A model generated the notes under the pieces. That model worked only from the letters and a program-made list of their open reading frames with translations, searched no databases and had not been told where the DNA came from. DNA of 64,000 nucleotides, taken from positions 1 through 64,000 of the forward strand of contig OZ025802.1 of assembly GCA_964019425.1 (NCBI GenBank), in the 5' to 3' direction. Each line of letters opens with the position of its first letter. Positions within the stretch are counted from its first letter, which is position 1. This stretch comes from Flectonema sp. DT1601 (lineage: Eukaryota). The position numbers and the translations under genes were made by a program. Below are positions 6,001-60,618 of the stretch, in pieces.

Positions 6001-9000
6001 GGTTTGCGGGTTTGCGGGTTTGCGGGTTTGCGGGTTTGCGGGTTTGCGGGTTTGCGGGTTTGCGGGTTTGCGGGTTTGCGGGTTTGCGGGTTTGCGGGTT
6101 TGCGGGTTTGCGGGTTTGCGGGTTTGCGGGTTTGCGGGTTTGCGGGTTTGCGGGTTTGCGGGTTTGCGGGTTTGCGGGTTTGCGGGTTTGCGGGTTTGCG
6201 GGTTTGCGGGTTTGCGGGTTTGCGGGTTTGCGGGTTTGCGGGTTTGCGGGTTTGCGGGTTTGCGGGTTTGCGGGTTTGCGGGTTTGCGGGTTTGCGGGTT
6301 TGCGGGTTTGCGGGTTTGCGGGTTTGCGGGTTTGCGGGTTTGCGGGTTTGCGGGTTTGCGGGTTTGCGGGTTTGCGGGTTTGCGGGTTTGCGGGTTTGCG
6401 GGTTTGCGGGTTTGCGGGTTTGCGGGTTTGCGGGTTTGCGGGTTTGCGGGTTTGCGGGTTTGCGGGTTTGCGGGTTTGCGGGTTTGCGGGTTTGCGGGTT
6501 TGCGGGTTTGCGGGTTTGCGGGTTTGCGGGTTTGCGGGTTTGCGGGTTTGCGGGTTTGCGGGTTTGCGGGTTTGCGGGTTTGCGGGTTTGCGGGTTTGCG
6601 GGTTTGCGGGTTTGCGGGTTTGCGGGTTTGCGGGTTTGCGGGTTTGCGGGTTTGCGGGTTTGCGGGTTTGCGGGTTTGCGGGTTTGCGGGTTTGCGGGTT
6701 TGCGGGTTTGCGGGTTTGCGGGTTTGCGGGTTTGCGGGTTTGCGGGTTTGCGGGTTTGCGGGTTTGCGGGTTTGCGGGTTTGCGGGTTTGCGGGTTTGCG
6801 GGTTTGCGGGTTTGCGGGTTTGCGGGTTTGCGGGTTTGCGGGTTTGCGGGTTTGCGGGTTTGCGGGTTTGCGGGTTTGCGGGTTTGCGGGTTTGCGGGTT
6901 TGCGGGTTTGCGGGTTTGCGGGTTTGCGGGTTTGCGGGTTTGCGGGTTTGCGGGTTTGCGGGTTTGCGGGTTTGCGGGTTTGCGGGTTTGCGGGTTTGCG
7001 GGTTTGCGGGTTTGCGGGTTTGCGGGTTTGCGGGTTTGCGGGTTTGCGGGTTTGCGGGTTTGCGGGTTTGCGGGTTTGCGGGTTTGCGGGTTTGCGGGTT
7101 TGCGGGTTTGCGGGTTTGCGGGTTTGCGGGTTTGCGGGTTTGCGGGTTTGCGGGTTTGCGGGTTTGCGGGTTTGCGGGTTTGCGGGTTTGCGGGTTTGCG
7201 GGTTTGCGGGTTTGCGGGTTTGCGGGTTTGCGGGTTTGCGGGTTTGCGGGTTTGCGGGTTTGCGGGTTTGCGGGTTTGCGGGTTTGCGGGTTTGCGGGTT
7301 TGCGGGTTTGCGGGTTTGCGGGTTTGCGGGTTTGCGGGTTTGCGGGTTTGCGGGTTTGCGGGTTTGCGGGTTTGCGGGTTTGCGGGTTTGCGGGTTTGCG
7401 GGTTTGCGGGTTTGCGGGTTTGCGGGTTTGCGGGTTTGCGGGTTTGCGGGTTTGCGGGTTTGCGGGTTTGCGGGTTTGCGGGTTTGCGGGTTTGCGGGTT
7501 TGCGGGTTTGCGGGTTTGCGGGTTTGCGGGTTTGCGGGTTTGCGGGTTTGCGGGTTTGCGGGTTTGCGGGTTTGCGGGTTTGCGGGTTTGCGGGTTTGCG
7601 GGTTTGCGGGTTTGCGGGTTTGCGGGTTTGCGGGTTTGCGGGTTTGCGGGTTTGCGGGTTTGCGGGTTTGCGGGTTTGCGGGTTTGCGGGTTTGCGGGTT
7701 TGCGGGTTTGCGGGTTTGCGGGTTTGCGGGTTTGCGGGTTTGCGGGTTTGCGGGTTTGCGGGTTTGCGGGTTTGCGGGTTTGCGGGTTTGCGGGTTTGCG
7801 GGTTTGCGGGTTTGCGGGTTTGCGGGTTTGCGGGTTTGCGGGTTTGCGGGTTTGCGGGTTTGCGGGTTTGCGGGTTTGCGGGTTTGCGGGTTTGCGGGTT
7901 TGCGGGTTTGCGGGTTTGCGGGTTTGCGGGTTTGCGGGTTTGCGGGTTTGCGGGTTTGCGGGTTTGCGGGTTTGCGGGTTTGCGGGTTTGCGGGTTTGCG
8001 GGTTTGCGGGTTTGCGGGTTTGCGGGTTTGCGGGTTTGCGGGTTTGCGGGTTTGCGGGTTTGCGGGTTTGCGGGTTTGCGGGTTTGCGGGTTTGCGGGTT
8101 TGCGGGTTTGCGGGTTTGCGGGTTTGCGGGTTTGCGGGTTTGCGGGTTTGCGGGTTTGCGGGTTTGCGGGTTTGCGGGTTTGCGGGTTTGCGGGTTTGCG
8201 GGTTTGCGGGTTTGCGGGTTTGCGGGTTTGCGGGTTTGCGGGTTTGCGGGTTTGCGGGTTTGCGGGTTTGCGGGTTTGCGGGTTTGCGGGTTTGCGGGTT
8301 TGCGGGTTTGCGGGTTTGCGGGTTTGCGGGTTTGCGGGTTTGCGGGTTTGCGGGTTTGCGGGTTTGCGGGTTTGCGGGTTTGCGGGTTTGCGGGTTTGCG
8401 GGTTTGCGGGTTTGCGGGTTTGCGGGTTTGCGGGTTTGCGGGTTTGCGGGTTTGCGGGTTTGCGGGTTTGCGGGTTTGCGGGTTTGCGGGTTTGCGGGTT
8501 TGCGGGTTTGCGGGTTTGCGGGTTTGCGGGTTTGCGGGTTTGCGGGTTTGCGGGTTTGCGGGTTTGCGGGTTTGCGGGTTTGCGGGTTTGCGGGTTTGCG
8601 GGTTTGCGGGTTTGCGGGTTTGCGGGTTTGCGGGTTTGCGGGTTTGCGGGTTTGCGGGTTTGCGGGTTTGCGGGTTTGCGGGTTTGCGGGTTTGCGGGTT
8701 TGCGGGTTTGCGGGTTTGCGGGTTTGCGGGTTTGCGGGTTTGCGGGTTTGCGGGTTTGCGGGTTTGCGGGTTTGCGGGTTTGCGGGTTTGCGGGTTTGCG
8801 GGTTTGCGGGTTTGCGGGTTTGCGGGTTTGCGGGTTTGCGGGTTTGCGGGTTTGCGGGTTTGCGGGTTTGCGGGTTTGCGGGTTTGCGGGTTTGCGGGTT
8901 TGCGGGTTTGCGGGTTTGCGGGTTTGCGGGTTTGCGGGTTTGCGGGTTTGCGGGTTTGCGGGTTTGCGGGTTTGCGGGTTTGCGGGTTTGCGGGTTTGCG

Positions 9001-12000
9001 GGTTTGCGGGTTTGCGGGTTTGCGGGTTTGCGGGTTTGCGGGTTTGCGGGTTTGCGGGTTTGCGGGTTTGCGGGTTTGCGGGTTTGCGGGTTTGCGGGTT
9101 TGCGGGTTTGCGGGTTTGCGGGTTTGCGGGTTTGCGGGTTTGCGGGTTTGCGGGTTTGCGGGTTTGCGGGTTTGCGGGTTTGCGGGTTTGCGGGTTTGCG
9201 GGTTTGCGGGTTTGCGGGTTTGCGGGTTTGCGGGTTTGCGGGTTTGCGGGTTTGCGGGTTTGCGGGTTTGCGGGTTTGCGGGTTTGCGGGTTTGCGGGTT
9301 TGCGGGTTTGCGGGTTTGCGGGTTTGCGGGTTTGCGGGTTTGCGGGTTTGCGGGTTTGCGGGTTTGCGGGTTTGCGGGTTTGCGGGTTTGCGGGTTTGCG
9401 GGTTTGCGGGTTTGCGGGTTTGCGGGTTTGCGGGTTTGCGGGTTTGCGGGTTTGCGGGTTTGCGGGTTTGCGGGTTTGCGGGTTTGCGGGTTTGCGGGTT
9501 TGCGGGTTTGCGGGTTTGCGGGTTTGCGGGTTTGCGGGTTTGCGGGTTTGCGGGTTTGCGGGTTTGCGGGTTTGCGGGTTTGCGGGTTTGCGGGTTTGCG
9601 GGTTTGCGGGTTTGCGGGTTTGCGGGTTTGCGGGTTTGCGGGTTTGCGGGTTTGCGGGTTTGCGGGTTTGCGGGTTTGCGGGTTTGCGGGTTTGCGGGTT
9701 TGCGGGTTTGCGGGTTTGCGGGTTTGCGGGTTTGCGGGTTTGCGGGTTTGCGGGTTTGCGGGTTTGCGGGTTTGCGGGTTTGCGGGTTTGCGGGTTTGCG
9801 GGTTTGCGGGTTTGCGGGTTTGCGGGTTTGCGGGTTTGCGGGTTTGCGGGTTTGCGGGTTTGCGGGTTTGCGGGTTTGCGGGTTTGCGGGTTTGCGGGTT
9901 TGCGGGTTTGCGGGTTTGCGGGTTTGCGGGTTTGCGGGTTTGCGGGTTTGCGGGTTTGCGGGTTTGCGGGTTTGCGGGTTTGCGGGTTTGCGGGTTTGCG
10001 GGTTTGCGGGTTTGCGGGTTTGCGGGTTTGCGGGTTTGCGGGTTTGCGGGTTTGCGGGTTTGCGGGTTTGCGGGTTTGCGGGTTTGCGGGTTTGCGGGTT
10101 TGCGGGTTTGCGGGTTTGCGGGTTTGCGGGTTTGCGGGTTTGCGGGTTTGCGGGTTTGCGGGTTTGCGGGTTTGCGGGTTTGCGGGTTTGCGGGTTTGCG
10201 GGTTTGCGGGTTTGCGGGTTTGCGGGTTTGCGGGTTTGCGGGTTTGCGGGTTTGCGGGTTTGCGGGTTTGCGGGTTTGCGGGTTTGCGGGTTTGCGGGTT
10301 TGCGGGTTTGCGGGTTTGCGGGTTTGCGGGTTTGCGGGTTTGCGGGTTTGCGGGTTTGCGGGTTTGCGGGTTTGCGGGTTTGCGGGTTTGCGGGTTTGCG
10401 GGTTTGCGGGTTTGCGGGTTTGCGGGTTTGCGGGTTTGCGGGTTTGCGGGTTTGCGGGTTTGCGGGTTTGCGGGTTTGCGGGTTTGCGGGTTTGCGGGTT
10501 TGCGGGTTTGCGGGTTTGCGGGTTTGCGGGTTTGCGGGTTTGCGGGTTTGCGGGTTTGCGGGTTTGCGGGTTTGCGGGTTTGCGGGTTTGCGGGTTTGCG
10601 GGTTTGCGGGTTTGCGGGTTTGCGGGTTTGCGGGTTTGCGGGTTTGCGGGTTTGCGGGTTTGCGGGTTTGCGGGTTTGCGGGTTTGCGGGTTTGCGGGTT
10701 TGCGGGTTTGCGGGTTTGCGGGTTTGCGGGTTTGCGGGTTTGCGGGTTTGCGGGTTTGCGGGTTTGCGGGTTTGCGGGTTTGCGGGTTTGCGGGTTTGCG
10801 GGTTTGCGGGTTTGCGGGTTTGCGGGTTTGCGGGTTTGCGGGTTTGCGGGTTTGCGGGTTTGCGGGTTTGCGGGTTTGCGGGTTTGCGGGTTTGCGGGTT
10901 TGCGGGTTTGCGGGTTTGCGGGTTTGCGGGTTTGCGGGTTTGCGGGTTTGCGGGTTTGCGGGTTTGCGGGTTTGCGGGTTTGCGGGTTTGCGGGTTTGCG
11001 GGTTTGCGGGTTTGCGGGTTTGCGGGTTTGCGGGTTTGCGGGTTTGCGGGTTTGCGGGTTTGCGGGTTTGCGGGTTTGCGGGTTTGCGGGTTTGCGGGTT
11101 TGCGGGTTTGCGGGTTTGCGGGTTTGCGGGTTTGCGGGTTTGCGGGTTTGCGGGTTTGCGGGTTTGCGGGTTTGCGGGTTTGCGGGTTTGCGGGTTTGCG
11201 GGTTTGCGGGTTTGCGGGTTTGCGGGTTTGCGGGTTTGCGGGTTTGCGGGTTTGCGGGTTTGCGGGTTTGCGGGTTTGCGGGTTTGCGGGTTTGCGGGTT
11301 TGCGGGTTTGCGGGTTTGCGGGTTTGCGGGTTTGCGGGTTTGCGGGTTTGCGGGTTTGCGGGTTTGCGGGTTTGCGGGTTTGCGGGTTTGCGGGTTTGCG
11401 GGTTTGCGGGTTTGCGGGTTTGCGGGTTTGCGGGTTTGCGGGTTTGCGGGTTTGCGGGTTTGCGGGTTTGCGGGTTTGCGGGTTTGCGGGTTTGCGGGTT
11501 TGCGGGTTTGCGGGTTTGCGGGTTTGCGGGTTTGCGGGTTTGCGGGTTTGCGGGTTTGCGGGTTTGCGGGTTTGCGGGTTTGCGGGTTTGCGGGTTTGCG
11601 GGTTTGCGGGTTTGCGGGTTTGCGGGTTTGCGGGTTTGCGGGTTTGCGGGTTTGCGGGTTTGCGGGTTTGCGGGTTTGCGGGTTTGCGGGTTTGCGGGTT
11701 TGCGGGTTTGCGGGTTTGCGGGTTTGCGGGTTTGCGGGTTTGCGGGTTTGCGGGTTTGCGGGTTTGCGGGTTTGCGGGTTTGCGGGTTTGCGGGTTTGCG
11801 GGTTTGCGGGTTTGCGGGTTTGCGGGTTTGCGGGTTTGCGGGTTTGCGGGTTTGCGGGTTTGCGGGTTTGCGGGTTTGCGGGTTTGCGGGTTTGCGGGTT
11901 TGCGGGTTTGCGGGTTTGCGGGTTTGCGGGTTTGCGGGTTTGCGGGTTTGCGGGTTTGCGGGTTTGCGGGTTTGCGGGTTTGCGGGTTTGCGGGTTTGCG

Positions 12001-12549
12001 GGTTTGCGGGTTTGCGGGTTTGCGGGTTTGCGGGTTTGCGGGTTTGCGGGTTTGCGGGTTTGCGGGTTTGCGGGTTTGCGGGTTTGCGGGTTTGCGGGTT
12101 TGCGGGTTTGCGGGTTTGCGGGTTTGCGGGTTTGCGGGTTTGCGGGTTTGCGGGTTTGCGGGTTTGCGGGTTTGCGGGTTTGCGGGTTTGCGGGTTTGCG
12201 GGTTTGCGGGTTTGCGGGTTTGCGGGTTTGCGGGTTTGCGGGTTTGCGGGTTTGCGGGTTTGCGGGTTTGCGGGTTTGCGGGTTTGCGGGTTTGCGGGTT
12301 TGCGGGTTTGCGGGTTTGCGGGTTTGCGGGTTTGCGGGTTTGCGGGTTTGCGGGTTTGCGGGTTTGCGGGTTTGCGGGTTTGCGGGTTTGCGGGTTTGCG
12401 GGTTTGCGGGTTTGCGGGTTTGCGGGTTTGCGGGTTTGCGGGTTTGCGGGTTTGCGGGTTTGCGGGTTTGCGGGTTTGCGGGTTTGCGGGTTTGCGGGTT
12501 TGCGGGTTTGCGGGTTTGCGGGTTTGCGGGTTTGCGGGTTTGCGGGTTT
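1..12549 (+). repeat. Telomere-like tandem array (TTTGCGGG)n, ~1,570 units
   Basis: Uninterrupted 8-bp period; only about five 1-2 nt indels, all within the first ~1010 bp; abrupt end at ...GCGGGTTT|TCCGTGTTG. Confidence 0.97.
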
Positions 12550-14842: not shown

Positions 14843-15793
14843 TTATCCTTGTATGTATTTTGTGTATGTTATGCTGTATTCTTGTATTAAAATATCATTC
14901 TTGTCTTGCAGGGAAAGGCCGTGGCTAAAATCTGTGGCTTCCACTTCAAAACGCTTAAGGAGATCGGGGCGAGTAGTACGTAGATCGCGCAATCGGTGAC
15001 CAAGACCCGATTGCTTCGCGAGAGAACGGTAAGAAAAAATCTTAATAAGGCGCTCCCATTCAGCAGAAGCTGAAAACTTTTTCGACCAATTGGACGATTT
15101 CTCCATAATAACATTGTAGACACCGTGCATGTCAGAGTCCTGTGAGGATCTGAGGATGTCTAATTTAATTGATTGCGCTTGTTTATATAGCGTCTCAACT
15201 CTTTTGTGTCTGAGACCAACAGTGTTCTTTGAACCAGTAAAAAGGATAACTGTGTTCGCAGAGCGGACAAATCCCCACCATTTCTTCAAAAAAGGTTTAA
15301 TAATTTTGTCCATTTTTTTGGCAAAAGGGAGAGATAAGTCATGGATCATCAAACTCCATGTTATCCTTGACAATAACAAGTGTTGGACAGACCAAGCCTT
15401 CTGAGACCCATACAGTGGCATGGCGTCGACTTTTTTTAAAAAATTCCTAGTAAAAGTGGTCAGGCGCTCTCTCAATTTCTGTTCTTTGGCGTTCGGCTCA
15501 AACCAGCGCCCGAGGTATTTGAACTCCCCAGCTTCCTGGAGATTCGTAATCGGAACATTGTTAATCTTCAGGTCCGTGTTAGCTGGTTTCCCTTGTACAA
15601 AGCTGTGGGCAATGCATTTCTGGGGTTTCGCTTTCATACGAGACCAGGAAAGAAACTGTTCAAGCGACTTGATTAGCAATTTTGCCCCCGCCTTTGATGA
15701 CGTGGTAAGTTGTAAATCATCAGCAAAAGCTGCAACTAATAATAGTTGGAGGGATTTATTGTTAAACTCGCATCGCGTGTGCGGTGGGTTTAA
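14843..15793 (-). pseudogene. Truncated reverse transcriptase fragment of an RLE-type (R2/NeSL/HERO-like) non-LTR retrotransposon
   Basis: Frame extends upstream of the listed ORF to include LVAAFADDLQL, then WSRMKAKPQKC, FKYLGRWF and QHLLLSRITWSL (RT motifs 5-7 and thumb). N-terminal RT and endonuclease are missing. Confidence 0.8.
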
Positions 15794-16532
15794 TCACTGA
15801 GGGGCCCATTCTCGTTCAGACTGTTCTGTTCTGTTCTGGTGTCTTTCCATTACTCCTCCCATCTCTGCCAGGAGACAGCCTGACAACCCATATTGATATT
15901 CCTTGAGAGGTCCTTCGCCTGAATCCCCTTCTTGCGAATTGTTGTAAGGAAGCTGCGGGAGAATGAGATGAGACGTCTGAGCACACCATTCACAATACTA
16001 TATTGTGCACACATGAACTCCATGATGTTGCCCATTTCCTCGTTACTGAGAGACATCAGGTAAGCGTATGCCCGCCTGCGACGATGAGAGTACTTGATGA
16101 GTCGCTCGTTGCGCTGCAAGAATGTGAGAACCCACCTGAGGAATGGAATACCTCGAAGCGGGCATGATAACACATAGCATGCAAATGCTAAGGTTCCGAA
16201 GCACCCATTTGTAACCTTCTCTTTAAATGGGCACGCCCTAAAAGAGATGCGGTGCTTCTTGCGAAGCCAGTAAGCAAACGACCGATTCCCACATATGTAT
16301 CTCTTGTTCTTTGGCTGGTCTGGGATGTGGGAACCATTCCTGATTCTGATGTGTTGAATCTTCACGTTTGGTCTAAGGCATCTCAGTCTGAGCGACTGGA
16401 CAATTTAACCCCGGCGCAAGTCATTAAGAGTAATTTCGATACTTAGTTTACAAGTATTAATACCTTAATAAATTTCTCTTCCCTATTCCCTTCAAAATTT
16501 CAATAACATGGATCTCGAGTGCGTGAGAATTA

Positions 16533-16654: not shown

Positions 16655-17853
16655 AATAAAAAAGAATAAAAAAAAAAAAAAAAAGAATAAACAATGTTAT
16701 CATTGTTTTTTTTTTTATCTTTGTCGACTAATTTCTATTTTCCGTTTCTTTTCTTTAAAAAATAAATAAAAAGAATTTAAAATAAAAAAAAGAATAAACA
16801 ATGTTATCATTGTTTTTTTATCGATCGACTATGTCGATTACTTTCTATTTTCCGTCCTGGTCAAGACGCTAAACTGATTGTTTTTTTTTTTCAAAATAAA
16901 AAAAATATTAAAAAAAAAAAATTTAAAAAAAAAGAATAAACAATGTTATCATTATTTTTTCTTATCGTTCGACTTTGTCGACTAATTTCTATTTTCCGTT
17001 TCTTTTCTTTAAAAAATAAATAAAAAGAATTTAAAATAAAAAAAAAGAATAAACAATGTTATCATTGTTTTTTTTTATCGATCGACTATGTCGATTACTT
17101 TCTATTTTCCGTCCTGGTCAAGACGCTAAACTGATTGTTTTTTTTTTTCAAAATAAAAAAAATATTAAAAAAAAAAAAATTAAAAAAAAAGAATAAACAA
17201 TGTTATCATTATTTTTTCTTATCGTTCGACTTTGTCGACTAATTTCTATTTTCCGTTTCTTTTCTTTAAAAAATAAATAAAAAGAATTTAAAATAAAAAA
17301 AAAGAATAAACAATGTTATCATTGTTTTTTTATCGATCGACTATGTCGATTACTTTCTATTTTCCGTCCTGGTCAAGACGCTAAACTGAAAATGAATAAA
17401 AAAGAATAAAAAAAAAAAAAAAAAAAAAAAAGAATAAACAATGTTTTCAATGTTTTTTTTTTTATCGTTCGACTTTGTCGACTAATTTCTATTTTCCGTT
17501 TCTTTTCTTTAAAAAATAAATAAAAAGAATTTAAAATAAAAAAAAAGAATAAACAATGTTATCATTGTTTTTTTATCGATCGACTATGTCGATTACTTTC
17601 TATTTTCCGTCCTGGTCAAGACGCTAAACTGAAAATGAATAAAAAAGAATAAAAAAAAAAAAAAAAAAAAAAAAGAATAAACAATGTTTTCAATGTTTTT
17701 TTTTTTATCGTTCGACTTTGTCGACTAATTTCTATTTTCCGTTTTTTCTCTTTAAAAAATAAATAAAAAGAATTTAAAATAAAAAAAAAGAATAAACAAT
17801 GTTATCATTGTTTTTTTATCGATCGACTATGTCGATTACTTTCTATTTTCCGT
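16655..17853. repeat. AT-rich satellite with alternating A/B monomers (~245-bp dimer, about 5 copies)
   Basis: AGAATAAACAATGTT(A/T)TCA heads every monomer; monomers alternately continue TTTTCCGTTTCTTTTC or TTTTCCGTCCTGGTCAAGACGCTAAACTG. Confidence 0.92.
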
Positions 17854-17923
17854 AAACCCGCAAACCCGCAAACCCGCAAACCCGCAAACCCGCAAACCCG
17901 CAAACCCGCAAACCCGCAAACCC
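17854..17923 (-). repeat. Internal tract of the telomere-like octamer, (AAACCCGC)x8.75, inverted relative to the 12.5-kb array
   Basis: Perfect reverse complement of the terminal repeat. Confidence 0.95.
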
Positions 17924-17985
17924 AGTCCCAGGCTGGACGAACTTGCAGCTCCATGCTGACTTGCGATAGAAGGGGTTCCCGCGGT

Positions 17986-19291
17986 TCACTTCGCCTGTAG
18001 ACGTGAGCCCCCCCCGGCGTTTCCCTTCGGTCTGAACTGAAAGCGGTTACCCACATTCAGTTTCTTTACAAAGGTTGGTGGGCGTGCTCTCTTCTTTTTT
18101 ACTATCAAGGCATTCGCCTTTTCTACAGGATCTTCGGATGCTATCAGTAGTTGCTCCTGAAGCCCCGACCGCTTTGTACCGTCTGTACAGAAAAAGTGTT
18201 GAAACCTTAACTGTCTCAACAAATCATCCCCCAACTTCACCAAGTGAGGAACCTGCGTCCAGCCTGTCACTCTTTCCATACCAAAAAGGAAGTTTGAGAG
18301 GTTCTCAAATTTTTCAACCAATAAGTCCCCTCCCAGACCATATTTTAGACCGGAAACATATCGGCCATCAAGCTTCATCACTAGTGTCGCCGCCCCCTTC
18401 GCTTCAAGGATTTCCTCCCATGCCTTGACCTCCTTTGCACATGACGGGTCAGTTATCAGTTCTAGGTGCTCTTCATGATCAGGTTCAGGCTGAGTATTCT
18501 GTTGTATCACCGGTGGCTGGAATGGCTGAGGTGGCATCCCCACTGGTGGCTGATGTGATAGTGGCGGTGGTGGCGGTGGCATCGGCATCTTCACTGCTTC
18601 GTGTTGCTGTGGTCGTGTCTCTTGTCTTTCTACCCGTGTTTTTAGCGAAACGAGTCCCGCCATTAGCGACTGCATTACAGTCTCGGTTTGTTGTTGCTGT
18701 TGCTGCTGTCTCATTGTAAAATCTTCGATGGTCGTCCTTATCGACCCCATCTCTTCAGCCGTGTTTTCCCTGTACCTGGCAACCGATTCAAACCTCTGAC
18801 CCACTCCAGAAAAGGTTGCCTCTGTCCGACTTTCTAACACCCTCGTTGCTTCGGCATTGTCTGAACATGTCTGCTGCGCCTGTTGACGCAGTAAGGCTGC
18901 ATCCTCCTGCAGACTGCCCATCGCATCGTTGGCGTCATCATACGACACGAGACAGGGGTTCCCCCCCCTTGACAGCCGCTCTCCAACCTTCGCGGCTTTT
19001 TCTGCTACCAATCCTCGATTTACCCTTGACAGCAGACCCAATAACACAACTGCATGTGTTATTGGGACCGTCGCCAATGATCCTTGCGGCATCCCCAAAG
19101 AGATGGCAAGTGTCCCCCTTACCATCTCCCTAAGCGATGTATCATTCCTCAGCTGATTGAGGTCCACTTCAAACGGGATATCTGCTTTTGCTGTATCCAA
19201 ATCAATCATTTCACTCTCTGTAGGTACCGGATTCCCTGTCTTTTTCTCCCATACATTCTTCAAGGCAGCAGGGAATGTAAACTCAACAAGT
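17986..19291 (-). pseudogene. Gag-like/coiled-coil ORF, distal copy lacking its ATG (interrupted by the LINE)
   Basis: Open frame with coiled-coil, poly-Q, poly-P and a basic C-terminus ending at an in-register G GGA AAC slippery site. The gag assignment is inference. Confidence 0.55.
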
Positions 19292-19740
19292 TAGTTAGTT
19301 AGTTAGTTAGCGAGTCCGACATACAATCGAGTACCGGTTAGCTAGACACAACAGGGTGGAACGGTTAACCACCTGTGAGTCCCCAATACTACGACTTTAT
19401 GTCAAACCTAATCCCTGAGAGGATCACTTTTTTAGCTCCAGCGAGGAATTCTAATGTTCGAGAGACCCGAATTCCTCAATGCTTCGGCCTTGACCGGTTC
19501 GCTAGCAAATTAACAGAGTTTGGGGAGGGGAAAGGAAGATGATAATGATAATGATAAAACGAAGAAAACAAAATAAAATAAAATAAAATAAAATAAAAAA
19601 AAAAAAATAAAATAAAATAAAATAAATCAATAAATAAACAAAATAAAGGAAAGGGATAGAGAATTCAGATCTGTTGAATAATAGTAATCCTGGATGATTT
19701 TGACTGCTACTGATGTTGATTTAAGTGAATACTGCCAAAG

Positions 19741-22700
19741 TCACATGCCAAGGGATATATCGATATAGGACCTAGTAGGAGGTCCACGGACCCTGTGGTC
19801 AAACCATTTGGGATCAATTCTTTTGTAGTCGGCGTAGTGGATCTTATTCAAAAGATCTGTGAATTGCGTTCCCACGATACCGAGGTAGCAATACAGTTCC
19901 ACTGTCCATAGATGTTCATGTATCTCCTTGATTTCGGTGCAGTCGTATGCTTGTGTGATGGCCTGCATGACTTCGGTCGTGTCATTCGGGGATAACTTTG
20001 GAAGTTTGGAGTACCTGTTGAGGTGCCACAGTAGTTTCTGTCTTGGTATGGCTACACGTAGCGGGAAACTCATTAAGTAGATGTTCAACTCCTTCAGCAT
20101 GGCGGCCAAAAATGGTTGGTTGTCGGTTTCGAAGAAGGTATGATGATGCTGGCCTACATTTTCCGTATTATCTATCGGAAGAATTGGGAAGAACTTTCGA
20201 ACTATCGGACTCACTCCCTTGCACTTAGAGAGGAGGTGGTGTGCATCTGTTTCGGTATGATCACAGAATTGGCAATCGGTTAGGCCCAAACCTGGCAGCT
20301 TAACTAATTTGTGGTGGCCAGTGCGTATTTGTGCAATACTCACTTCGTCCTCCCGAGAGATATCAGGATGAAACTTCTGTACTCTCCCAGCTGACGTAGC
20401 TAAGCAGTGTACGTGCATTGTGTCGCGGGATCTGAGCCATTCTCTTCTCACCTGGCTGATTATGGAACATTGGGCCATGCGGTAGTCGAACTCAACTTCC
20501 GTGAGCGGCAGGTCGGAAGCCGCCGCTTTGGAGGCTAGGTTGTCCGCCAATTCATTCCCTATCACACCACAGTGTGAGGGTACAAATTGAACTGATATCG
20601 GACGGTTTAGTGAGGATATCAGTTTAAATATCTTGCTGTTAGTACGCGAGGATTGGCATAGGTAGCCTTTAGCCAGGCTACTTAGCGACGACTGGCTGTC
20701 CGATATGACGTGAACGCGACCATATGGGAGCCGTGCTGAGTTCTCGCGGATGAGATCAAGGGCTGAGATTAGTGCGCGCTGTTCGGCGTTGTAAATCATG
20801 AGTGACGGATGGTAGCGTTGTTGCTTCTTGTAGCACTTGTTCCGGACGACGAGTACTGCTGCGTTGCCACAGTGGTAATTGCCATCCTTGTCCTCAAAAT
20901 ACGAAGCATCAGTGTATACTCTGGCAACTGCCGGCGGAAGAGACTCCAACGAAGCGATGGCAAATTTGAGGTTGAGTCCCGAGTCCTGTGACTTTCTGAA
21001 ATCTCTGTTAGGTATAATTGTTACGTTGGGTGGTGTTAACCACGGTGCTTGGTAATGTTGTAAATACATCTGCGATCTAAGTCGGGGTGTTGGATAGCGT
21101 CTAGATGAACGCGAGGCTGAAGCTTCCCACGGAGTCTCCTCGTTGCCTTTGAAGAGACCCCATGTCGGTAGATTATCATTGTATCGCTGGAATCGTTCAT
21201 AGCACAGTGCTAGGGACTTAGTTAGATGTTGCTGAAACGGTAGAATATCTGACTCAACTGATACTGCTGAGGTCGACGCCGATTGGGAGCAGCCCGTTAG
21301 TCTCAACATGAGTTTCCTGTGGACCGTGCTTACGTGTGTCCATGATTTCTCGCGGAGGAATGGGGCGTATGCGGCAAGGCCGTGGAATGCCCTAGCTAGT
21401 ACCAAACCATTCACCAGTTGTCTCAAAGTTTCCGTCTTGATCCTGAAGGATGAGATCATCTTTAGAAGACCAATTCCACGCTTCAGTGTGCTTTCCATTT
21501 TGTTCAATTGTGGAATAAAGGAGAGACGGTCGTCGATCAACACACCCAGATATCTCGCTTGTTCCACGCGCCTAAGAGGCTTGGCTGTTGTCATCGTTAG
21601 TGCCTTCTTACTCACTCTGCTTCGAAATTCTGAACGAGTCGACACCTTCCTTCCGTTTACAGTTAGGGGAAAGGTTGTTCCTCCATCGCGATTCAGTTGT
21701 GCTCCAGGTCCTATGTCTAAATCATCTAAAAGGTCCATCGGACTCGAAATGGACTCCAATTTTATAGTTGATGGAAGATACAGTCTAGGGAATCTACAGA
21801 GCCCCCTGCCAGGGTCAAACCGTGTGCCAATGGCTAGAAACTCCGTCTTCTCTATTGACAAACTCATTTCTGAGTCTACTAGCCAGCCCTCCACTTGCCG
21901 TATTGCCTCATTGGCTTTATCCTCCAGATCACCAACTTTCGTACTGCTAACAAATATTGATAGGTCGTCAGCATATAGAAGCTTCAGATCGGCACTCTTG
22001 ATCGACTGTGGTAGGGAGTTGACGTATAGTCTGAAGAGGAGAGGTCCAAGGATGCTACCTTGCGGGACACCTTTGTTACATTTGACCCTCTTCGAGAAGG
22101 ATTCGCCATATTGCAGACGGGCCGACCGGTGAGTTAAGAAATCGGAGATCCATCTAACGAAAGGCAACGGTAGGAGTGGTTTGAGTCTTGCGATTAACTT
22201 ATTATGATTAACATTATCAAATGCACCTGAGATGTCAAAGAACAGCAAAACCCCACATCTGTTAAAATCGCTTCTTACTTCGGATGCTGCATTTGTTAAG
22301 ACTGCAATGTTTTCTTCAGTAGTCCTGCCTGGGACGAAACCAGCTTGATTGGGGTCAAGGTTACCTTCCAAAATGTGCTCCAGCCGCCGGAGGATCAGAG
22401 ATTCAATGAATTTAGCCACAGTTGATGTCATCGAAATAGGACGGTACGACGATGGTTCCACTGGATCTTTTCCATTCCCTTTGAGAAATGGAATTACGTT
22501 TGCTTCTTTAAAACAATCTGGCAGAATGCCGCGCTGTAGTGACCAGTTGGCAATCCTGAGTAGGACCTCCTTCATCCCGGTTCCTAAGTGTAGAATCATG
22601 TTATTCGTGATTGCGTCAGGTCCCGCACTATCGGTCTTCCTGAGCGAGTGGAGAACGGCCTGGGCTTCTTCCAAAGAGAAGGGTTTACACTCAGGGATTT

Positions 22701-23787
22701 CGAGGTCTTCTGGTTTTACTGTTGGGGACTGTGATCTGCCTACATCGTTACTTGAGGGGAAAAAACGTTCCAACAGCGTCTTCAGCGGGGCTTGTGGTTT
22801 TGGAAGGGACGTTTTATCACCTCTAAGTTCTCTCAGTTTCCTGTATGTCCAAGAAAAACCCTTATCGCTGCTTCCTAGAACTACTTGATCCGGAGTGAGA
22901 GGGGTCAACTGACGTTTCGCTGCTGCACGACGAGGTTTGCACCACTTATTTGGCAACGTTGCAATCGCTGTTTTAATAATCGTTTGTGTAAAGTTCAATG
23001 AGAGTTTCTTCAATGATTTAACCTTAAGGAGACGGGCAGTGTGGATATCAAGCTTCTCAGTAAAATTCTTCCAGTGTTCGATAGAAAATCTTTTGTATAG
23101 CCATTTCCGGTGTGGAGGAGAGCCTTTCTCATTCGCAAGAGCCGAGATGTCGAAGTCCGCTAGAATAGGAGTATGGTCTGACATAAGGGTCTCTGGATCG
23201 TATTGGCAGATGCTAAGGCACTTGTGTTGTGGGGAGTGTAGAATAAGATCTGGAGTCGTACCGTGTCTGGGGATCGTGGGTCTGAGTTGAGTTATCTCCA
23301 AACCGTTGTCAGTAATCCAATTATTTACTACGTTACCAGCGTATCTTACAGTTACCTTATTTGTCCAGGACTCGTGGTGGGCATTGAAATCTCCGAAGGC
23401 CATATCGCCCAAATCGAATGTTTGCGGCAGGCTTGTAACACCTGGTGGTATGTATACATTATTAAATGTAATGGACCCCATGGCGGATGCTAAATTATAA
23501 CTAAGAATTTCTATATCTGAGGAATCAGGAGCAGTTTCCGGCAAGCGAGATATTTTCAGACCGTCTTTGAAGTAGGTGAGCAAACCACCACCACGACATT
23601 TGGAGCCAACAACTCTGTCCCTTCTTAGTGATGAGTATCCATTCATGTGAAGAAGGTCACAGCTGTTTTTATTGAGCCAGGTTTCTTGAAGATTAATAAT
23701 ATCAGGGTTAGTAGCGGATACTATTGACTCCAAAGCTGCTCGAGTGTTAGATAATGATCTAACGTTCCATGATAGTACTCTCAAAGG
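19741..23787 (-). CDS. LINE ORF2: AP endonuclease - reverse transcriptase - RNase H - CCHC finger
   Basis: SWNV, LQETWL, GDFNAHH, SDH (APE); YRPIS, QAGF, FFDISGAFD, GVPQGSILGP, YADD, YLGV (RT); YTDAS, SDSQS, VPSHCGVIGNELAD (RNase H); CQFC..H..C. No ATG before the APE motifs. Confidence 0.95.
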   Translation of the reverse strand, partial: PLRVLSWNVRSLSNTRAALESIVSATNPDIINLQETWLNKNSCDLLHMNGYSSLRRDRVVGSKCRGGGLLTYFKDGLKISRLPETAPDSSDIEILSYNLASAMGSITFNNVYIPPGVTSLPQTFDLGDMAFGDFNAHHESWTNKVTVRYAGNVVNNWITDNGLEITQLRPTIPRHGTTPDLILHSPQHKCLSICQYDPETLMSDHTPILADFDISALANEKGSPPHRKWLYKRFSIEHWKNFTEKLDIHTARLLKVKSLKKLSLNFTQTIIKTAIATLPNKWCKPRRAAAKRQLTPLTPDQVVLGSSDKGFSWTYRKLRELRGDKTSLPKPQAPLKTLLERFFPSSNDVGRSQSPTVKPEDLEIPECKPFSLEEAQAVLHSLRKTDSAGPDAITNNMILHLGTGMKEVLLRIANWSLQRGILPDCFKEANVIPFLKGNGKDPVEPSSYRPISMTSTVAKFIESLILRRLEHILEGNLDPNQAGFVPGRTTEENIAVLTNAASEVRSDFNRCGVLLFFDISGAFDNVNHNKLIARLKPLLPLPFVRWISDFLTHRSARLQYGESFSKRVKCNKGVPQGSILGPLLFRLYVNSLPQSIKSADLKLLYADDLSIFVSSTKVGDLEDKANEAIRQVEGWLVDSEMSLSIEKTEFLAIGTRFDPGRGLCRFPRLYLPSTIKLESISSPMDLLDDLDIGPGAQLNRDGGTTFPLTVNGRKVSTRSEFRSRVSKKALTMTTAKPLRRVEQARYLGVLIDDRLSFIPQLNKMESTLKRGIGLLKMISSFRIKTETLRQLVNGLVLARAFHGLAAYAPFLREKSWTHVSTVHRKLMLRLTGCSQSASTSAVSVESDILPFQQHLTKSLALCYERFQRYNDNLPTWGLFKGNEETPWEASASRSSRRYPTPRLRSQMYLQHYQAPWLTPPNVTIIPNRDFRKSQDSGLNLKFAIASLESLPPAVARVYTDASYFEDKDGNYHCGNAAVLVVRNKCYKKQQRYHPSLMIYNAEQRALISALDLIRENSARLPYGRVHVISDSQSSLSSLAKGYLCQSSRTNSKIFKLISSLNRPISVQFVPSHCGVIGNELADNLASKAAASDLPLTEVEFDYRMAQCSIISQVRREWLRSRDTMHVHCLATSAGRVQKFHPDISREDEVSIAQIRTGHHKLVKLPGLGLTDCQFCDHTETDAHHLLSKCKGVSPIVRKFFPILPIDNTENVGQHHHTFFETDNQPFLAAMLKELNIYLMSFPLRVAIPRQKLLWHLNRYSKLPKLSPNDTTEVMQAITQAYDCTEIKEIHEHLWTVELYCYLGIVGTQFTDLLNKIHYADYKRIDPKWFDHRVRGPPTRSYIDISLGM

Positions 23788-23880
23788 ACCAGGGTTTTGT
23801 TCAATACCAGACAGAATTAAGCGGCGTCTGGCAGTAGTAGAGAGATGGTACTCTTTGCTCGGTTGTTGATGTTGTAGTTG

Positions 23881-26115
23881 CTACTTCGATTTTTGGTTTC
23901 GGCAAGGCGATCTTCCTCTGGATTTGCCTGGGGTCCCAGATCTATCACCGTATGGGGAGAAGGACCCCAGTAACTGAGCTGCCATGTCCGATTCGCGGCC
24001 AATCAACGATTTTGACCTGGACCTCGACAGTATCGAGTTGCTGTTGGATTTCCTAGGAGGGGCTTTCATCTCCACAGAAGAAATTTCAATACATGGCAAC
24101 TGCTGATGTGATGTATCGGCGCTTGGAATATTCGAGTTCTGTTGCAGTGTCGCAGTTGGAACAGAAGTTGAGTTTTGATAATTTGAGTCTAATCGGGCCA
24201 TTAGCTCCGAGATTTGTTGCTGCATTTGTCCCTGACGTTCAAGTAGCTCTTCGATATGAGCGTCCTTTTCCGCTGCCTGAGATGTCGCCTTCAGCTGCGC
24301 CTTTTGATTGTCCTTAATTAACTCTGAGACTTGCTGCTGCATCCTTTCTTGTTGATCCATTAGCTTGTTGATGTGGGCATCCTTCTCAGATGTCAGCGAC
24401 TTATTAGTATTCTGTGCTGCCTGAAGGTTCTTCAGTAAATCAGTCGTCTGATTTGTCAGACCTGTGACCTCAGCTGTGAGTACGGCGTTCTGTTGTTGCA
24501 TTGTACTCTGTTGTTCAATGAGAGTTTGAATGCGGGCTTCTTTGCTCTCGTTGTGGGATGACGCCTCTAACTGGGAGGCTTTTTGATTCGCCATTAGATC
24601 CGATATCTGATCCGTCAAGGCAGTTATCTTCTCCGATAGGTGTAGGTTCTGAACCTGCATCTGTTGTTGGTAATCCTGGAGATCCTGGATTCGAGCATCC
24701 TTCTCAGTCAGTTGTTGTTGTGAAGAGTTGTTGGATGTTAAGTTTGTAGAGTTCTCTGCTACGGATGGCAAGGTGGAGGTGGTATTGTCTGTCGTAGTGT
24801 CAATCTCCATCGGTACATCTGTTGCTTCAGATTGAGAAGAAGGGAGCGGAGGGAATTCATCAGTGCTACGGGACGGCACCTCGCGTTTGGCTTCTTTATT
24901 TATTGAGAGTAGGCCATGGCCTTTGATGAAAAACGCTGTAATGTTAGGTTCCTCCAGGGACTTCACTACAAAATACCCTCTGGACCCTTTCTTTCGGAGG
25001 TGTGTTGCTTCTTCCACTGCCCAACCTTGACCAGCCAGAATCTTACACATGTCGGAAGAGCTGAGCCTATGAAGGTTCGGTCCTGTGATATAAAAACGGG
25101 AACCAGGTGTCGGAGGTGGCATTGCAAGGAGACCGATCTCTTTACGAGTGATCAATTCTCGATCGGGACTCTGTACCAAAGACAGCTTGTTTGTTCTGCG
25201 CGAGAGAATAATGGCAGCGCCGACTTTCTTCGCCGCCGAGGATGCTGTTTCGTAATCGGTGGTGTTGAGTCTGATGACTGAGGTAGTGGATAATTCTGTC
25301 TGGACTCGTTGAGGGATAGAGACGAAGTAACCTTTGTGTCTACTGGTGACATACAGTTGGAACAGATGGATGCGGGTCAATGGTACACGGATGTTGATTG
25401 TCTGAACCCTCGGGGTTCGTAGTTTGGATTCCCAAACTTGGTGGCGGTCGATTGCTGATAAGCCTGTTTGCTTTGCAAACTGGTTGTAGATGGTAATGGC
25501 TGAGTCGATTAGGTCAGTTGTATTAAGAATTTCCAAGCCGGAGTGACCTGGGTGGTGGTATAGCTGGATCACTGCTGATGGTAGCGGATTGTTTCCTGAA
25601 GGAATTAGGGACTTAGCGGGTGTTCCGGACACTGCCGTCATAAAAGCCTTGCGTACGACTGATTTGCCATCCACAAGCAGGGATACCTGGATTGGATTAC
25701 CTTTGCCAGGGTCTTCGGTGGTGATGGCCGTTAAGCGACCATTGTTGTTGCGGCGTTGGAGAAGGGGCAACTGGTCTGTTGGGAGTAGAAAGATTGCCTC
25801 CGTGATTGCTGGATTATTGATGACTGCAGAGCCATCTATAACTGGAATGTCCCAGCCCGGTTGACGAAGAGCCGCCTTACCCCACGACTTAGGTATATGT
25901 CGTTGTGGCTTGGCCGCTACTGCTGCCCACGACTTGCTCGGTTGTGGTGTATGTGTCGGCTTATTTCTTTGCGGCGGCGTTCTTTGCGGCGGAGACGTCT
26001 TAATTTTCGGTGGAGGCGGCGGAGACTGCTTGCCTCTTGTCGACGAGTTAGCAACTAGACTGATGAGGGTGTTTATTAGGGTCTTCAACTGGACCCCACT
26101 CTTCTTCTTCTTCAT
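23881..26115 (-). CDS. LINE ORF1 protein (744 aa; Pro/Lys-rich N-terminus, long Gln-rich coiled coil)
   Basis: Long ATG-initiated ORF starting 75 nt downstream of the SL, in frame with ORF2. Confidence 0.85.
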   Translation of the reverse strand: MKKKKSGVQLKTLINTLISLVANSSTRGKQSPPPPPKIKTSPPQRTPPQRNKPTHTPQPSKSWAAVAAKPQRHIPKSWGKAALRQPGWDIPVIDGSAVINNPAITEAIFLLPTDQLPLLQRRNNNGRLTAITTEDPGKGNPIQVSLLVDGKSVVRKAFMTAVSGTPAKSLIPSGNNPLPSAVIQLYHHPGHSGLEILNTTDLIDSAITIYNQFAKQTGLSAIDRHQVWESKLRTPRVQTINIRVPLTRIHLFQLYVTSRHKGYFVSIPQRVQTELSTTSVIRLNTTDYETASSAAKKVGAAIILSRRTNKLSLVQSPDRELITRKEIGLLAMPPPTPGSRFYITGPNLHRLSSSDMCKILAGQGWAVEEATHLRKKGSRGYFVVKSLEEPNITAFFIKGHGLLSINKEAKREVPSRSTDEFPPLPSSQSEATDVPMEIDTTTDNTTSTLPSVAENSTNLTSNNSSQQQLTEKDARIQDLQDYQQQMQVQNLHLSEKITALTDQISDLMANQKASQLEASSHNESKEARIQTLIEQQSTMQQQNAVLTAEVTGLTNQTTDLLKNLQAAQNTNKSLTSEKDAHINKLMDQQERMQQQVSELIKDNQKAQLKATSQAAEKDAHIEELLERQGQMQQQISELMARLDSNYQNSTSVPTATLQQNSNIPSADTSHQQLPCIEISSVEMKAPPRKSNSNSILSRSRSKSLIGRESDMAAQLLGSFSPYGDRSGTPGKSRGRSPCRNQKSK

Positions 26116-26190
26116 AGTTATTCAAAAAGGTGTTGTGACTGATGGGGGACGCACCTTACTGCTCTTTCACCGTTTTGTTTGGATCGAGAT

Positions 26191-26228
26191 CAATAAAGTA
26201 CAGAAACTGTAGCTTTAGAATCGTTGGT
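26191..26228 (-). other. Retroposed spliced-leader mini-exon (38 of 39 nt): ACCAACGATTCTAAAGCTACAGTTTCTGTACTTTATTG
   Basis: 3' half CAGTTTCTGTACTTTATTG is the conserved kinetoplastid/diplonemid SL end. 5' half resembles the Diplonema SL as I recall it. Not followed by a GT donor. Confidence 0.9.
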
Positions 26229-27033
26229 AGTATTCTGTTGTATCACCGGTGGCTGGAATGGCTGAGGTGGCATCCCCACTGGTGGCTGATGTGATAGTGG
26301 CGGTGGTGGCGGTGGCATCGGCATCTTCACTGCTTCGTGTTGCTGTGGTCGTGTCTCTTGTCTTTCTACCCGTGTTTTTAGCGAAACGAGTCCCGCCATT
26401 AGCGACTGCATTACAGTCTCGGTTTGTTGTTGCTGTTGCTGCTGTCTCATTGTAAAATCTTCGATGGTCGTCCTTATCGACCCCATCTCTTCAGCCGTGT
26501 TTTCCCTGTACCTGGCAACCGATTCAAACCTCTGACCCACTCCAGAAAAGGTTGCCTCTGTCCGACTTTCTAACACCCTCGTTGCTTCGGCATTGTCTGA
26601 ACATGTCTGCTGCGCCTGTTGACGCAGTAAGGCTGCATCCTCCTGCAGACTGCCCATCGCATCGTTGGCGTCATCATACGACACGAGACAGGGGTTCCCC
26701 CCCCCTTGACAGCCGCTCTCCAACCTTCGCGGCTTTTTCTGCTACCAATCCTCGATTTACCCTTGACAGCAGACCCAATAACACAACTGCATGTGTTATT
26801 GGGACCGTCGCCAATGATCCTTGCGGCATCCCCAAAGAGATGGCAAGTGTCCCCCTTACCATCTCCCTAAGCGATGTATCATTCCTCAGCTGATTGAGGT
26901 CCACTTCAAACGGGATATCTGCTTTTGCTGTATCCAAATCAATCATTTCACTCTCTGTAGGTACCGGATTCCCTGTCTTTTTCTCCCATACATTCTTCAA
27001 GGCAGCAGGGAATGTAAACTCAACAAGTGGCAT
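26229..27033 (-). pseudogene. Gag-like ORF, proximal copy (ATG at 27033; MPLVEFTF...QQNT), cut off by the LINE
   Basis: Matches 18493-19291 except one extra C in a poly-C run (~26697-26705) that shifts the frame. Confidence 0.7.
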
Positions 27034-27248
27034 CTTCGAAAACGTGAGTGTGAGAGAAAGAAGTGATCGAGCTGTATAAAGAATTTCTTTTTGAAAAAAT
27101 AGAAGGTTAAAGAATATATAAAAATGTGCTGTTTCGTTCATTTTTCCAACTTCGGAATCATACACTTTTCTGTCTGATTCCTTTGATTATTTCTTTCCGG
27201 TGCTAAGCTTGGTGGAAAATTACCTGAATGAATTCTAGGTATCTCTAG

Positions 27249-27270
27249 TGCGGGTTTGCGGGTTTGCGGG
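27249..27270 (+). repeat. Short internal octamer tract TGCGGGTTTGCGGGTTTGCGGG, same orientation as the terminal array
   Basis: Directly follows GGTATCTCTAG. Confidence 0.85.
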
Positions 27271-27294
27271 CGTGTTTTTTGTTTGGACATCCAA

Positions 27295-27735
27295 AAAAAG
27301 GAAAGGCCAAAAAGCCTATACAGGGAATAAAAATAGAGGTGACTTAGTTGTAAAATAAGGTTGATTCAGAAACATAAAAATGGCTAACTTGAAATAAGCT
27401 CATACCTATAACCTTGTTTGCATGGTTAGCCGTTTCATTTTTGCATACTTAAGAAAAGGAAAAACAAGTTTAATTCAGAAAAACAAAAAATAAATAACTT
27501 TGCAATACCCGCTGAAGGCAGTTTTTTGTTTGGGGAAAGATAAAAGGCTAAAAAGCCTGATACAAGGAATAAAAACAGAGGTGACTTGGTTGAAAAATAA
27601 GGTTGTTCAGAAAGATAAAAATGGTTAACTTGAAGCCCCATACCCACTTTAACCTAGCCATCGTTTTCATTTTTGCTAGCTTAGGCAAAGGAAAAACAAG
27701 TTTAATTCATAAAAACAAAAAATAAATAACTTTGC
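27295..27735. repeat. Diverged ~230-bp tandem duplication
   Basis: AAAGGC(C/T)AAAAAGCCT...AAAATAAATAACTTTGC occurs twice. Confidence 0.8.
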
Positions 27736-28169
27736 GTGAGCGAAGCGAGCCTGAACGGGTATCTCTAGTGCAGGTTTGCGGTCAAATTTTAAAAACAGGA
27801 GAAGGTTCGTACTGGGTAGATACTTGGTTTGCTAAAGAACGACGTTCCATAATCCATTGAGACACAACAATGACCAAAACATACTACACATATTTCCATC
27901 TCAAAATGTTACAACAGAAACGTTCAGAGCCACATAAGAGACTTCGACAACTACAGCTCAACTTCTTTGGTGGAATGAATAAAATGGTTTCTGTTAGTCG
28001 CAGTAAACCTGAAAAGCTTTTCTTTTGGTCATTCACCTTTTTTATTATTTCGAACACGCAGTTTCTGCTTCTTTTTTAAGTAATCATTCATCGCAATCTT
28101 ACTGTTTTCAATCTCAAATGTCACTACTACTATTACTGTTTATTCTGTTCAAATCTATTTACACTTGGT

Positions 28170-31879: not shown

Positions 31880-33200
31880 TCATCTGTCTTTTGCATCTTC
31901 GTTATTTGAAAATGCGAAACCGTTCCCTGGAGTGTTGAGTTCGTTTCGGGTTAGGGTCTCATCATTGGACATGTACTGATTCAGGATAGTACTAATTTCC
32001 TCAAGTATTTCCTTGTGCGGTAAATTAGTGTACATGTCACTAAAGTCAAAGGACTTAACATTTCTATAGCTGAGACAAGTGTAGTTAGCTTTAATATACT
32101 TCGCTACCTCATCAACATTGTCAACTATGAAATATTTCTGTATTCCGGTTTTCCTTTCTTCTTCTTTTTCTATCGTTTTAATTCTAAACAATAGCGTTTT
32201 TAAGATGCCTGACAGTTCTTTTGACATCTCTGTGGTTGCAGTGAGAGGTTTGCCTCTAAACAAACAGTTGTCACCTTCCTTTTGAATATCGAAGTTTGTT
32301 TTTGAGGAAGAACCAGCTATGAAACGAAACTTCATCGGTTTCTTGTGAAACTTCGGACTACCATAAAGATATGGTAAGTTGTTTGTGTGTCTGAAGCCGT
32401 GTTTTTTGTTAAGTTTTTCTAACCTAATCATTTCCTCCTTGGTCTCTTCAATGTTGTATTCTTTGTAGACATTACAACCGTTGATTTGGTTGTTGAGGGT
32501 TTGTTGGTACAAATGTCTACAACACAGAGCTAGGTCGTGTGTTGTCTTGTCAATCTGGAGAAAACCCATGTGTTCTTTGATTTTAGTAATCTCTTTTTGT
32601 ACCGTTTGCAGTTCATTATTGTTTTGTAATGGTGGCATATTACTGATGTAACCTCTCAGGGTTGTTTTTAGAAACATCGCAAGATTAGTAAACTTGCTGT
32701 GATCATAATGCAATGAGATGAAATCATCAACTGCTGATTCTACTTCTTTGAGGATCTCATCGCTGTTATCATGTAGGCGATAACGGCCACCTTTAGAGAA
32801 GTAGGTTTTTGAATCTCTTTGTTGTCAGCAGCTTTGAAGCGTGAATTAGAACGTGAGAGTCTGTTCGTTTATTCTTGTCAACAAAGTTTTAGCAAGGGCA
32901 TTCTTTAGCCGATTTCAAATCTGTTTTTGGAAGAAACCTACTCTCCGTCGCATGATCACAAAGGATGTCTCTGAGAGTTGTATTGAGTCTACGAGACATC
33001 AAAAGGTTTTCGACTACTTACCGAAAGCTTCGATGTTCAACATGGTTACCCTTCAAAAGAAATACGGAAAGGATACTGAAGAGCTCGTTATCTTTGGTGG
33101 TGTTTTCTTTTATTCTGTTCACCCTTTGGGTGGTGAAGGTGTGTATTTTTAACGGGCAGGCAATGGCGGTTCACTTTGTCCAATCACCTTTCCGATCCCC
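31880..33200 (-). pseudogene. Penelope-like element (PLE) reverse transcriptase fragment
   Basis: CPC..HV, KGGRYR, IDK..CCRHLY, LPYLYGSPKFHKKPMKFRFIAGSS and SFDFSDMYTNLPH. Stops/frameshifts upstream; truncated after RT motif A. Upstream part is repeated at ~38610-38825. Confidence 0.8.
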
Positions 33201-60522: not shown

Positions 60523-60618
60523 CGAAAGTAATTAAAAGAAGTTATTGATTACAATAAATGAATAAAATGTGTAAATGATATTATTCTACGACAATGTAAT
60601 GTAAAGTGAGACAATAAT

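Follow-up and report, generated by a model that had tools for sequence, protein, structure and literature searches.

Putative stop codon readthrough followed by a 2A-like peptide at the ORF1/ORF2 junction of a LINE from Flectonema sp. DT1601

The translation of the second open reading frame (ORF2) of long interspersed nuclear elements (LINEs) and the purpose of the 2A-like (StopGo) peptides carried by some of them have both been stated as open questions, the 2A peptide being seen as a substitute for ORF1 (PMC3894237). Two kinds of described elements come close to the one reported here. In the L1Tc/Ingi elements of trypanosomes (PMC3708506, PMC3894237), a 2A-like peptide directly precedes the apurinic/apyrimidinic endonuclease (APE) domain in a frame that continues into reverse transcriptase (RT) and ribonuclease H (RNase H), and in the Group 3 elements of Paramecium (PMC5405496), ORF1 and ORF2 are parted by an in-frame stop codon alone, for which readthrough has been proposed from the sequence; in the Paramecium element RT21873 the APE domain begins ~37 codons past the stop. 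The LINE described here has both arrangements, and it probably shares with L1Tc/Ingi a euglenozoan host. It spans 26228-19292 (6937 bp) on the minus strand of a 64,000-nucleotide (nt) stretch from Flectonema sp. DT1601 (GenBank assembly GCA_964019425.1, contig OZ025802.1, positions 1 to 64,000 of the forward strand; hereafter the window). We lean towards the proposal that readthrough of TAG-CAA-CTA plus StopGo expresses ORF2 of this intact 6.9-kb APE-RT-RNase H element.

Stop codon, linker and 2A-like core

ORF1 ends AAG TAG CAA CTA on the minus strand (TAG at 23883-23881), and the frame stays open through CAA CTA and beyond (coordinates in Table 1). A UAG CAR YYA beyond which an ORF continues in the same frame is the arrangement of type I readthrough, and PMC13517186 reports that the motif functions in mammals, plants and yeast without the help of downstream RNA structure; RNA structure 3' of the stop is not significant here (z -1.3). 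With the sequence of tobacco mosaic virus (TMV), stable plant lines showed 6-10% readthrough and transient assays 32% (PMC2754532).

The 32 codons after the stop (23880-23785) translate as QLQHQQPSKEYHLSTTARRRLILSGIEQNPGP and lead straight into LRVLSWNV, and the whole ORF2 frame (23880-19741) stays open for 1379 codons and ends with TGA. Within this frame SWNV starts at codon 37, LQETW at codon 64, and the earliest Met is codon 79, past the SWN and QET motifs, which hold catalytic Asn and Glu residues of APE enzymes. The one ATG ahead of codon 79 is out of frame, and in-frame near-cognate starts first appear at codons 22, 23, 26 and 33. By chance, 12-16% of 32-codon windows are open in two non-coding frames. 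An earlier note on this DNA had described the same stop context, the continuation over 32 codons into LRVLSWNV and a first ORF2 Met located after SWNV/QET, all of which holds.

The linker closes with GIEQNPGP, an octamer that fits the expanded 2A core (D/G/C/N)(V/I)ExNPGP, in which G is as common as D (PMC12846837); GxExNPGP has also been reported as a functional non-canonical core (PMC13405545). At this composition, 40 codons are expected to contain an octamer of the expanded type ~3e-7 times by chance. Upstream of the core, the tract RRRLILS-G resembles a 2A class ending with (A/G/S)G at p12 (class per the text of PMC12846837). The 2A-like reading of the linker in the earlier note is supported, and its caveat that G stands where D is canonical becomes unneeded, since G is an accepted core residue documented as active (PMC12846837). 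The predicted skip at Pro32 would lie at the N-terminal edge of the endonuclease fold, two residues before the point at which residue 34 of the ORF2 frame aligns, weakly (E 0.025), to residue 2 of exonuclease III. The ORF1/ORF2 junction itself is confirmed as real and non-chance.

Under the proposed mechanism, most ribosomes would terminate at TAG and release plain ORF1p (744 aa); the few per cent that read on would place a residue at TAG and append a 31-residue 2A tail. The Gly-Pro bond would then be skipped, giving ORF1p-plus-tail (776 aa) and a free ORF2p (1348 aa) that would start with Pro and begin at the first strand of the endonuclease. That ribosomes read through and skip, how often each happens and what ORF1:ORF2 ratio results are inferences; the frame, stop, context, motif, missing start codon and the conservation of stop position and linker peptide are seen in the sequences. 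Readthrough of TAG is favoured over a start within the linker because neither AUG nor a near-cognate codon precedes codon 22 and the conserved peptide described below extends from codon 7. Of the mechanism proposed in the earlier note, the anatomy and the 2A reading stand, and the readthrough step is argued from the context of one copy.

Were readthrough real and the 2A peptide weak or dead, the main product would be an ORF1-ORF2 fusion of 2126 codons, like retroviral Gag-Pol. The 2A motif by itself is no guarantee of skipping, and just two leucines are found at 2A positions -19 to -10, but NPGP and the upstream peptide are kept in a family whose ORF2 is 54% identical, and the core and the SG junction fit described active 2A classes; we regard a predominant fusion as distinctly unlikely.

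In favour of readthrough, the context is an exact type I match, and CARYYA follows 5 of the 987 TAG triplets in the window outside the satellite, the ORF1 stop counted among them; TAG-CARYYA is about a 1-in-200 match, picked post hoc among several known readthrough contexts. Several observations weigh against readthrough coupled to StopGo. In-frame CARYYA dicodons occur within the ORFs (3/745 in ORF1 and 2/1378 in ORF2), the stop region is Gln-rich, the base preceding the stop is G (versus CAA in TMV), and the context is known from the DNA of one copy, the relatives having been compared as proteins. The core motif alone is not sufficient for skipping activity; a phenotype was seen in 821 of the 3271 non-viral 2A-like peptides tested (PMC13405545), and three of five lancelet CR1 2As tested were without detectable activity (PMC3708506). 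Scans for TAG-CARYYA, 54-84 nt and a 2A-like core did not recover the pairing. Of 17 matches in viral contigs, two kept the frame and neither was open; of 48 in metagenome contigs, seven kept the frame and two of those were open, a near-identical pair without a long flanking ORF. All of these matches, from mostly prokaryotic collections, are read as chance. The relatives at 54% identity can do without readthrough, because they have their own Met at the equivalent of linker codon 2-3, and the element in the window could simply have lost this ATG. Finally, the starts assigned by gene callers in other relatives are no proof that an upstream ATG is absent.

Relatives of the two ORFs and competing explanations

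When ORF1 was searched against 7993 candidate proteins, there were three matches: the window's own, P0201 (81-82%) and P0202 (45-52%). The P0201 and P0202 clusters hold six ORF1 relatives from outside the window, one of them a 255-aa fragment. Five of the six stop 10 residues past a shared SRGR, and ORF1 of the window stops 9 residues past it; for these relatives on other contigs, known as proteins, the comparison concerns the position of the stop, not the identity of the codon. The earlier note would have been undone by a nonsense mutation peculiar to this copy, and the stop is not copy-specific, because five of six relatives end within one codon of the same place. No fused ORF1-ORF2 protein was present among 7980 longer candidates, which is weak evidence. 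The P0202-cluster ORF1s and the closest ORF2 cluster are likely one family, because three contig sizes (1013941, 285601 and 25824 nt) carrying P0202-cluster ORF1s recur among full-length members of that ORF2 cluster; the size of 285601 nt also recurs in two other clusters.

The element would have a single ORF if TAG were a sense codon in the host or a sequencing error for CAG, and nine other long ORFs in the window do end with TAA or TGA and none with TAG. Opening TAG in silico, however, merges ORF1 and ORF2 into 2126 codons and lets no other long frame in the window gain more than 21 codons, and the Gln codons of the window ORFs (318 of 7341 codons) are all CAA or CAG; TAG is therefore not a general sense codon in the window. 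With the common stop position of the ORF1 relatives on other contigs also standing against it, this explanation deserves next to no credence.

In the closest ORF2 family (70% identical), 15 of 18 members were listed, and the five of these that include the N-terminal part all have their start assigned to the Met corresponding to codon 79. This points to the absence of an upstream ATG in a suggestive way only, because the earliest start is not always the one that a gene caller chooses. In the P0003 family the assigned Met lies just past SWN. The window's ORF2 was not found in the protein collection under the three starts tried. These calls bear on the possibility that the element lost its ORF2 start and, producing no ORF2p, was copied by the machinery of another family in trans. 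That possibility draws on the Met of the related family and on the single copy seen as DNA, but the ORF2 frame runs uninterrupted through 1379 codons, the closest, multi-copy family is without an upstream start in the five N-terminal calls listed, and the frame is still intact in a lineage that has diverged by 30%, all of which makes copying in trans quite improbable.

The ORF2 family at 54% identity begins M(M)PPPPKKQYHETVTAR-x-NLLRSGVHPNPGP-LRVLSWN in 4 of 10 members, its core being GVHPNPGP; H at p14 is ~90% active (PMC12846837). In an ungapped comparison anchored at NPGP, 8-9 of the 22-23 upstream residues of the linker are identical to this leader, a value reached by 0-1 of 20000 shuffles, and the first common residue is codon 7, ahead of any near-cognate start. 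The linker is, or recently was, under protein-level constraint, and it is likely translated in the window element, where it has no ATG, because it is conserved with a Met-initiated leader. Two more distant clusters (~30%; 15 of 37 and 15 of 101 members listed) have DVERNPGP with an upstream Met in nine listed members. In the family of P0167/P0158 (40-45%), one member has the degenerate core GFPRHPGP with Met directly next, which reads as though a start codon past the skip site were taking over from the 2A.

The conserved leader also bears on the main competing explanation, i.e., that, as proposed for human L1, ribosomes terminate at TAG and restart independently of AUG at an arbitrary linker codon, the 2A peptide trimming the ragged N-terminus and CARYYA being incidental. 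L1 tolerates loss of the AUG, and the sister family has its Met at linker codon 2-3. Reinitiation of an unconventional kind has been demonstrated for SART1 and put forward for LINE-1 (PMC5972666). Such a restart, however, requires the 0.5% context match to have arisen by chance, and since codons 1-21 offer neither AUG nor a near-cognate start it would come too late for the conserved upstream peptide; we consider it fairly unlikely.

ORF2 might also be translated from its own trans-spliced mRNA, e.g., with the AG of TAG as spliced leader (SL) acceptor. TAG fits a YAG acceptor, and SL trans-splicing in the host is suggested by the SL exon of the element, but no pyrimidine tract precedes TAG. A separate SL acceptor for ORF2 appears unlikely because the 200 nt upstream contain 20% T, like coding DNA (mean 23%, standard deviation 3.5); before six other starts in the window the T content is 32-42%. 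Moreover, the first ATG past TAG is out of frame, and the inserted copy stems from RNA with SL, ORF1 and ORF2 together. An acceptor and start of its own for ORF2 was another finding that the earlier note held to be fatal to its reading, and there is neither an acceptor signature nor an early in-frame Met. We judge a separate ORF2 mRNA to be highly improbable.

Element anatomy, classification and neighbouring features

Table 1. Features of the LINE and its flanks (window coordinates)
Feature	Position	Strand	Remarks
Upstream flanking duplication copy	26229..27028	-	800 bp
SL-like exon	26191..26228	-	38 nt, first base missing; 5' end of element; only copy in window
5' untranslated region (UTR)	26116..26190	-	without upstream ATG
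ORF1	23881..26115	-	ATG at 26115; 744 aa; TAG end; RNA recognition motif (RRM)-like ~180-410 and coiled coil 465-648 predicted
ORF1/ORF2 stop context	23875..23883	-	TAG CAA CTA; type I (TMV-like) readthrough context, definition per PMC13517186
Linker/upstream 2A part	23809..23880	-	24 codons without ATG; near-cognate start earliest at codon 22
2A/StopGo core	23785..23808	-	GIEQNPG|P; fits (D/G/C/N)(V/I)ExNPGP; predicted skip Gly 23790-23788 / Pro 23787-23785
ORF2 from Pro	19741..23787	-	1348 aa; APE endonuclease, RT, RNase H, C-terminal CxxC knuckle
3' tail	19292..19309	-	short AACT repeats closing element
Downstream flanking duplication copy	18493..19291	-	799 bp; 799/799 aligned bases identical, one gap in G run

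The SL-like exon is identical in 36 of 38 nt to Euglenozoa SL 14 (PMC3795323). This euglenozoan SL is one that we take to be linked to diplonemids, and the host is likely a diplonemid protist. With respect to a Pr77-type 5' signature or ribozyme, an Rfam scan of 17800-28000, which included no direct Pr77 comparison, gave no match up to E 1, the 5' end being the SL exon. No AG lies immediately ahead of the 5' UTR, and a daughter copy would therefore have to gain a fresh acceptor or go unspliced. The 800/799-bp repeat would represent a very long target-site duplication left by recent insertion from an SL-capped RNA with both ORFs; target-site duplications of LINEs are usually far shorter than 800 bp. 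The repeat flanks the LINE exactly, and an origin by assembly or tandem duplication is also possible. We argue that the copy is young and its template recently active, because both ORFs are intact and the flanks are identical at 799/799 bases. The interrupted target ORF (17986-19291 with 26229-27033) has ~437 codons with a Gln/Pro-rich middle and a short 8-nt satellite array after it; it had no Pfam match and nothing above 0.78 in the Atlas.

ORF1 gave nothing above the Pfam cut-off, and every Atlas match was below 0.9. Its predicted model is of low confidence (mean predicted local distance difference test score, pLDDT, 50.6), with three alpha/beta units at ~180-410 and a long coiled coil, and had no Foldseek match at E 0.001. 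The third alpha/beta unit has many RRM matches with Z ~8 (best 8.2, which is middling) and a root-mean-square deviation of 2.3-2.7 over ~70 residues, and ORF1p is predicted to be RNA-binding. In the ORF2 frame, Pfam matches cover endonuclease (36-236), RT (476-683) and RNase H (987-1120), and the best PDB sequence matches are LINE-1 ORF2p (E 5.8e-41).

APE endonuclease followed by non-long terminal repeat (LTR) RT in one frame marks the element as a LINE, as do a 3' simple-repeat tail, a target-site duplication (although unusually long) and the absence of LTRs. In a quick RT tree of 118 rows (P0004 replaced by P0158, three rows dropped for length), the window element joined P0001 (support 99), then P0002, P0003 and P0158 (100), within a set of 41 rows, many of them elements with RNase H (Shimodaira-Hasegawa-like approximate likelihood ratio test, SH-aLRT, 98); the tree contained no named Ingi/L1Tc row. 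No related DNA locus was found in metagenome contigs or prokaryote genomes by ORF1 alignment, or in viral contigs by ORF2 alignment.

Elsewhere in the window, 1-12549 and 17850-17923 contain 1568 near-perfect copies of telomere-like TTTGCGGG, plus nine in opposite orientation 5.3 kb off. Another element has left a broken RT-like frame at 14843-16404 (-), with a weak RVT_1 match (E 4e-6), and a further broken frame of another element at 31880-32824 (-), without Pfam match, we assume to be RT-like. A membrane protein of 1410 aa at 45598-49866 resembles ferric reductases and carries an N-terminal unit of 142 aa repeated about four times, and 53629-55839 and 58327-60531 encode paralogous single-pass receptor-like kinases, the first with a 15-aa tandem repeat tail.

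Comparison with described elements and recoding systems

The window element shares with the Ingi clade the 2A directly before APE and RNase H after RT. That clade is reported as single-ORF elements without ORF1 and with their own AUG (PMC3708506), whereas the window element has a 744-aa ORF1 with relatives and no ORF2 start codon; the Ingi core has D where the window core has G, and L1Tc transcripts are unspliced (PMC1874656), unlike the window element with its SL exon at the 5' end. In the available description of the D. papillatum genome, a 76-member orthogroup is annotated as Tbingi protein, and LINE proteins are listed without mention of recoding. We put at about even chances a history in which an Ingi-like single-ORF element gained ORF1 and lost its ORF2 start, TMV-type readthrough setting the dosage and the ancestral 2A freeing the enzyme, all from one SL-capped mRNA. 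The element has both ORF1 and 2A, and the job of the 2A would be to undo the fusion that readthrough would create.

The Paramecium Group 3 elements differ in belonging to a ciliate clade, and the available text names no RNase H and mentions no type I context; the string NPGP is absent from three text supplements of PMC5405496. The elements CR1-26_BF, CR1-53_BF and CR1-1_LG (PMC3708506) likewise combine an ORF1 with a 2A-like peptide close to the N-terminal end of ORF2, but they are of the CR1 clade, readthrough goes unmentioned in the available text, and the 2A of CR1-53_BF is without detectable activity. The earlier note knew of no readthrough-2A combination in a LINE. We likewise did not find this pairing in the literature searched, including the available parts of PMC5972666, PMC5009743, PMC3441728, PMC12338488 and bioRxiv 2026.09.24.754024, with most subscription journals, Repbase reports and 2A-survey supplements lying outside the search. 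Each half is already known in LINEs, an in-frame stop with proposed readthrough from Paramecium and 2A from Ingi/L1Tc, and as far as these searches show only the pairing is new.

If the proposal is correct, a LINE lineage expresses ORF2 without any initiation, from a natural 33-codon readthrough-StopGo cassette, and it would provide a case of programmed readthrough and of a G-core 2A in a free-living euglenozoan. At ~100 nt, the cassette is short enough for reporters to test each step directly. Gene callers truncate such ORF2 proteins and, in the relatives, place the start at a Met beyond the catalytic motifs.

Among other recoding systems, the type I readthrough of TMV and the gag-pol readthrough of murine leukaemia virus (MuLV) and some Copia elements have the same UAG CAR YYA context and likewise keep the structural protein in excess over the polymerase, but there the fusion is kept or cut by protease, whereas in the window element the enzyme would come free through a co-translational skip. 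Cardioviruses combine StopGo with frameshifting (PMC5009743), so that one recoding event closely follows another, as proposed here; they differ in being RNA viruses, and in their order StopGo comes first, followed by the frameshift.

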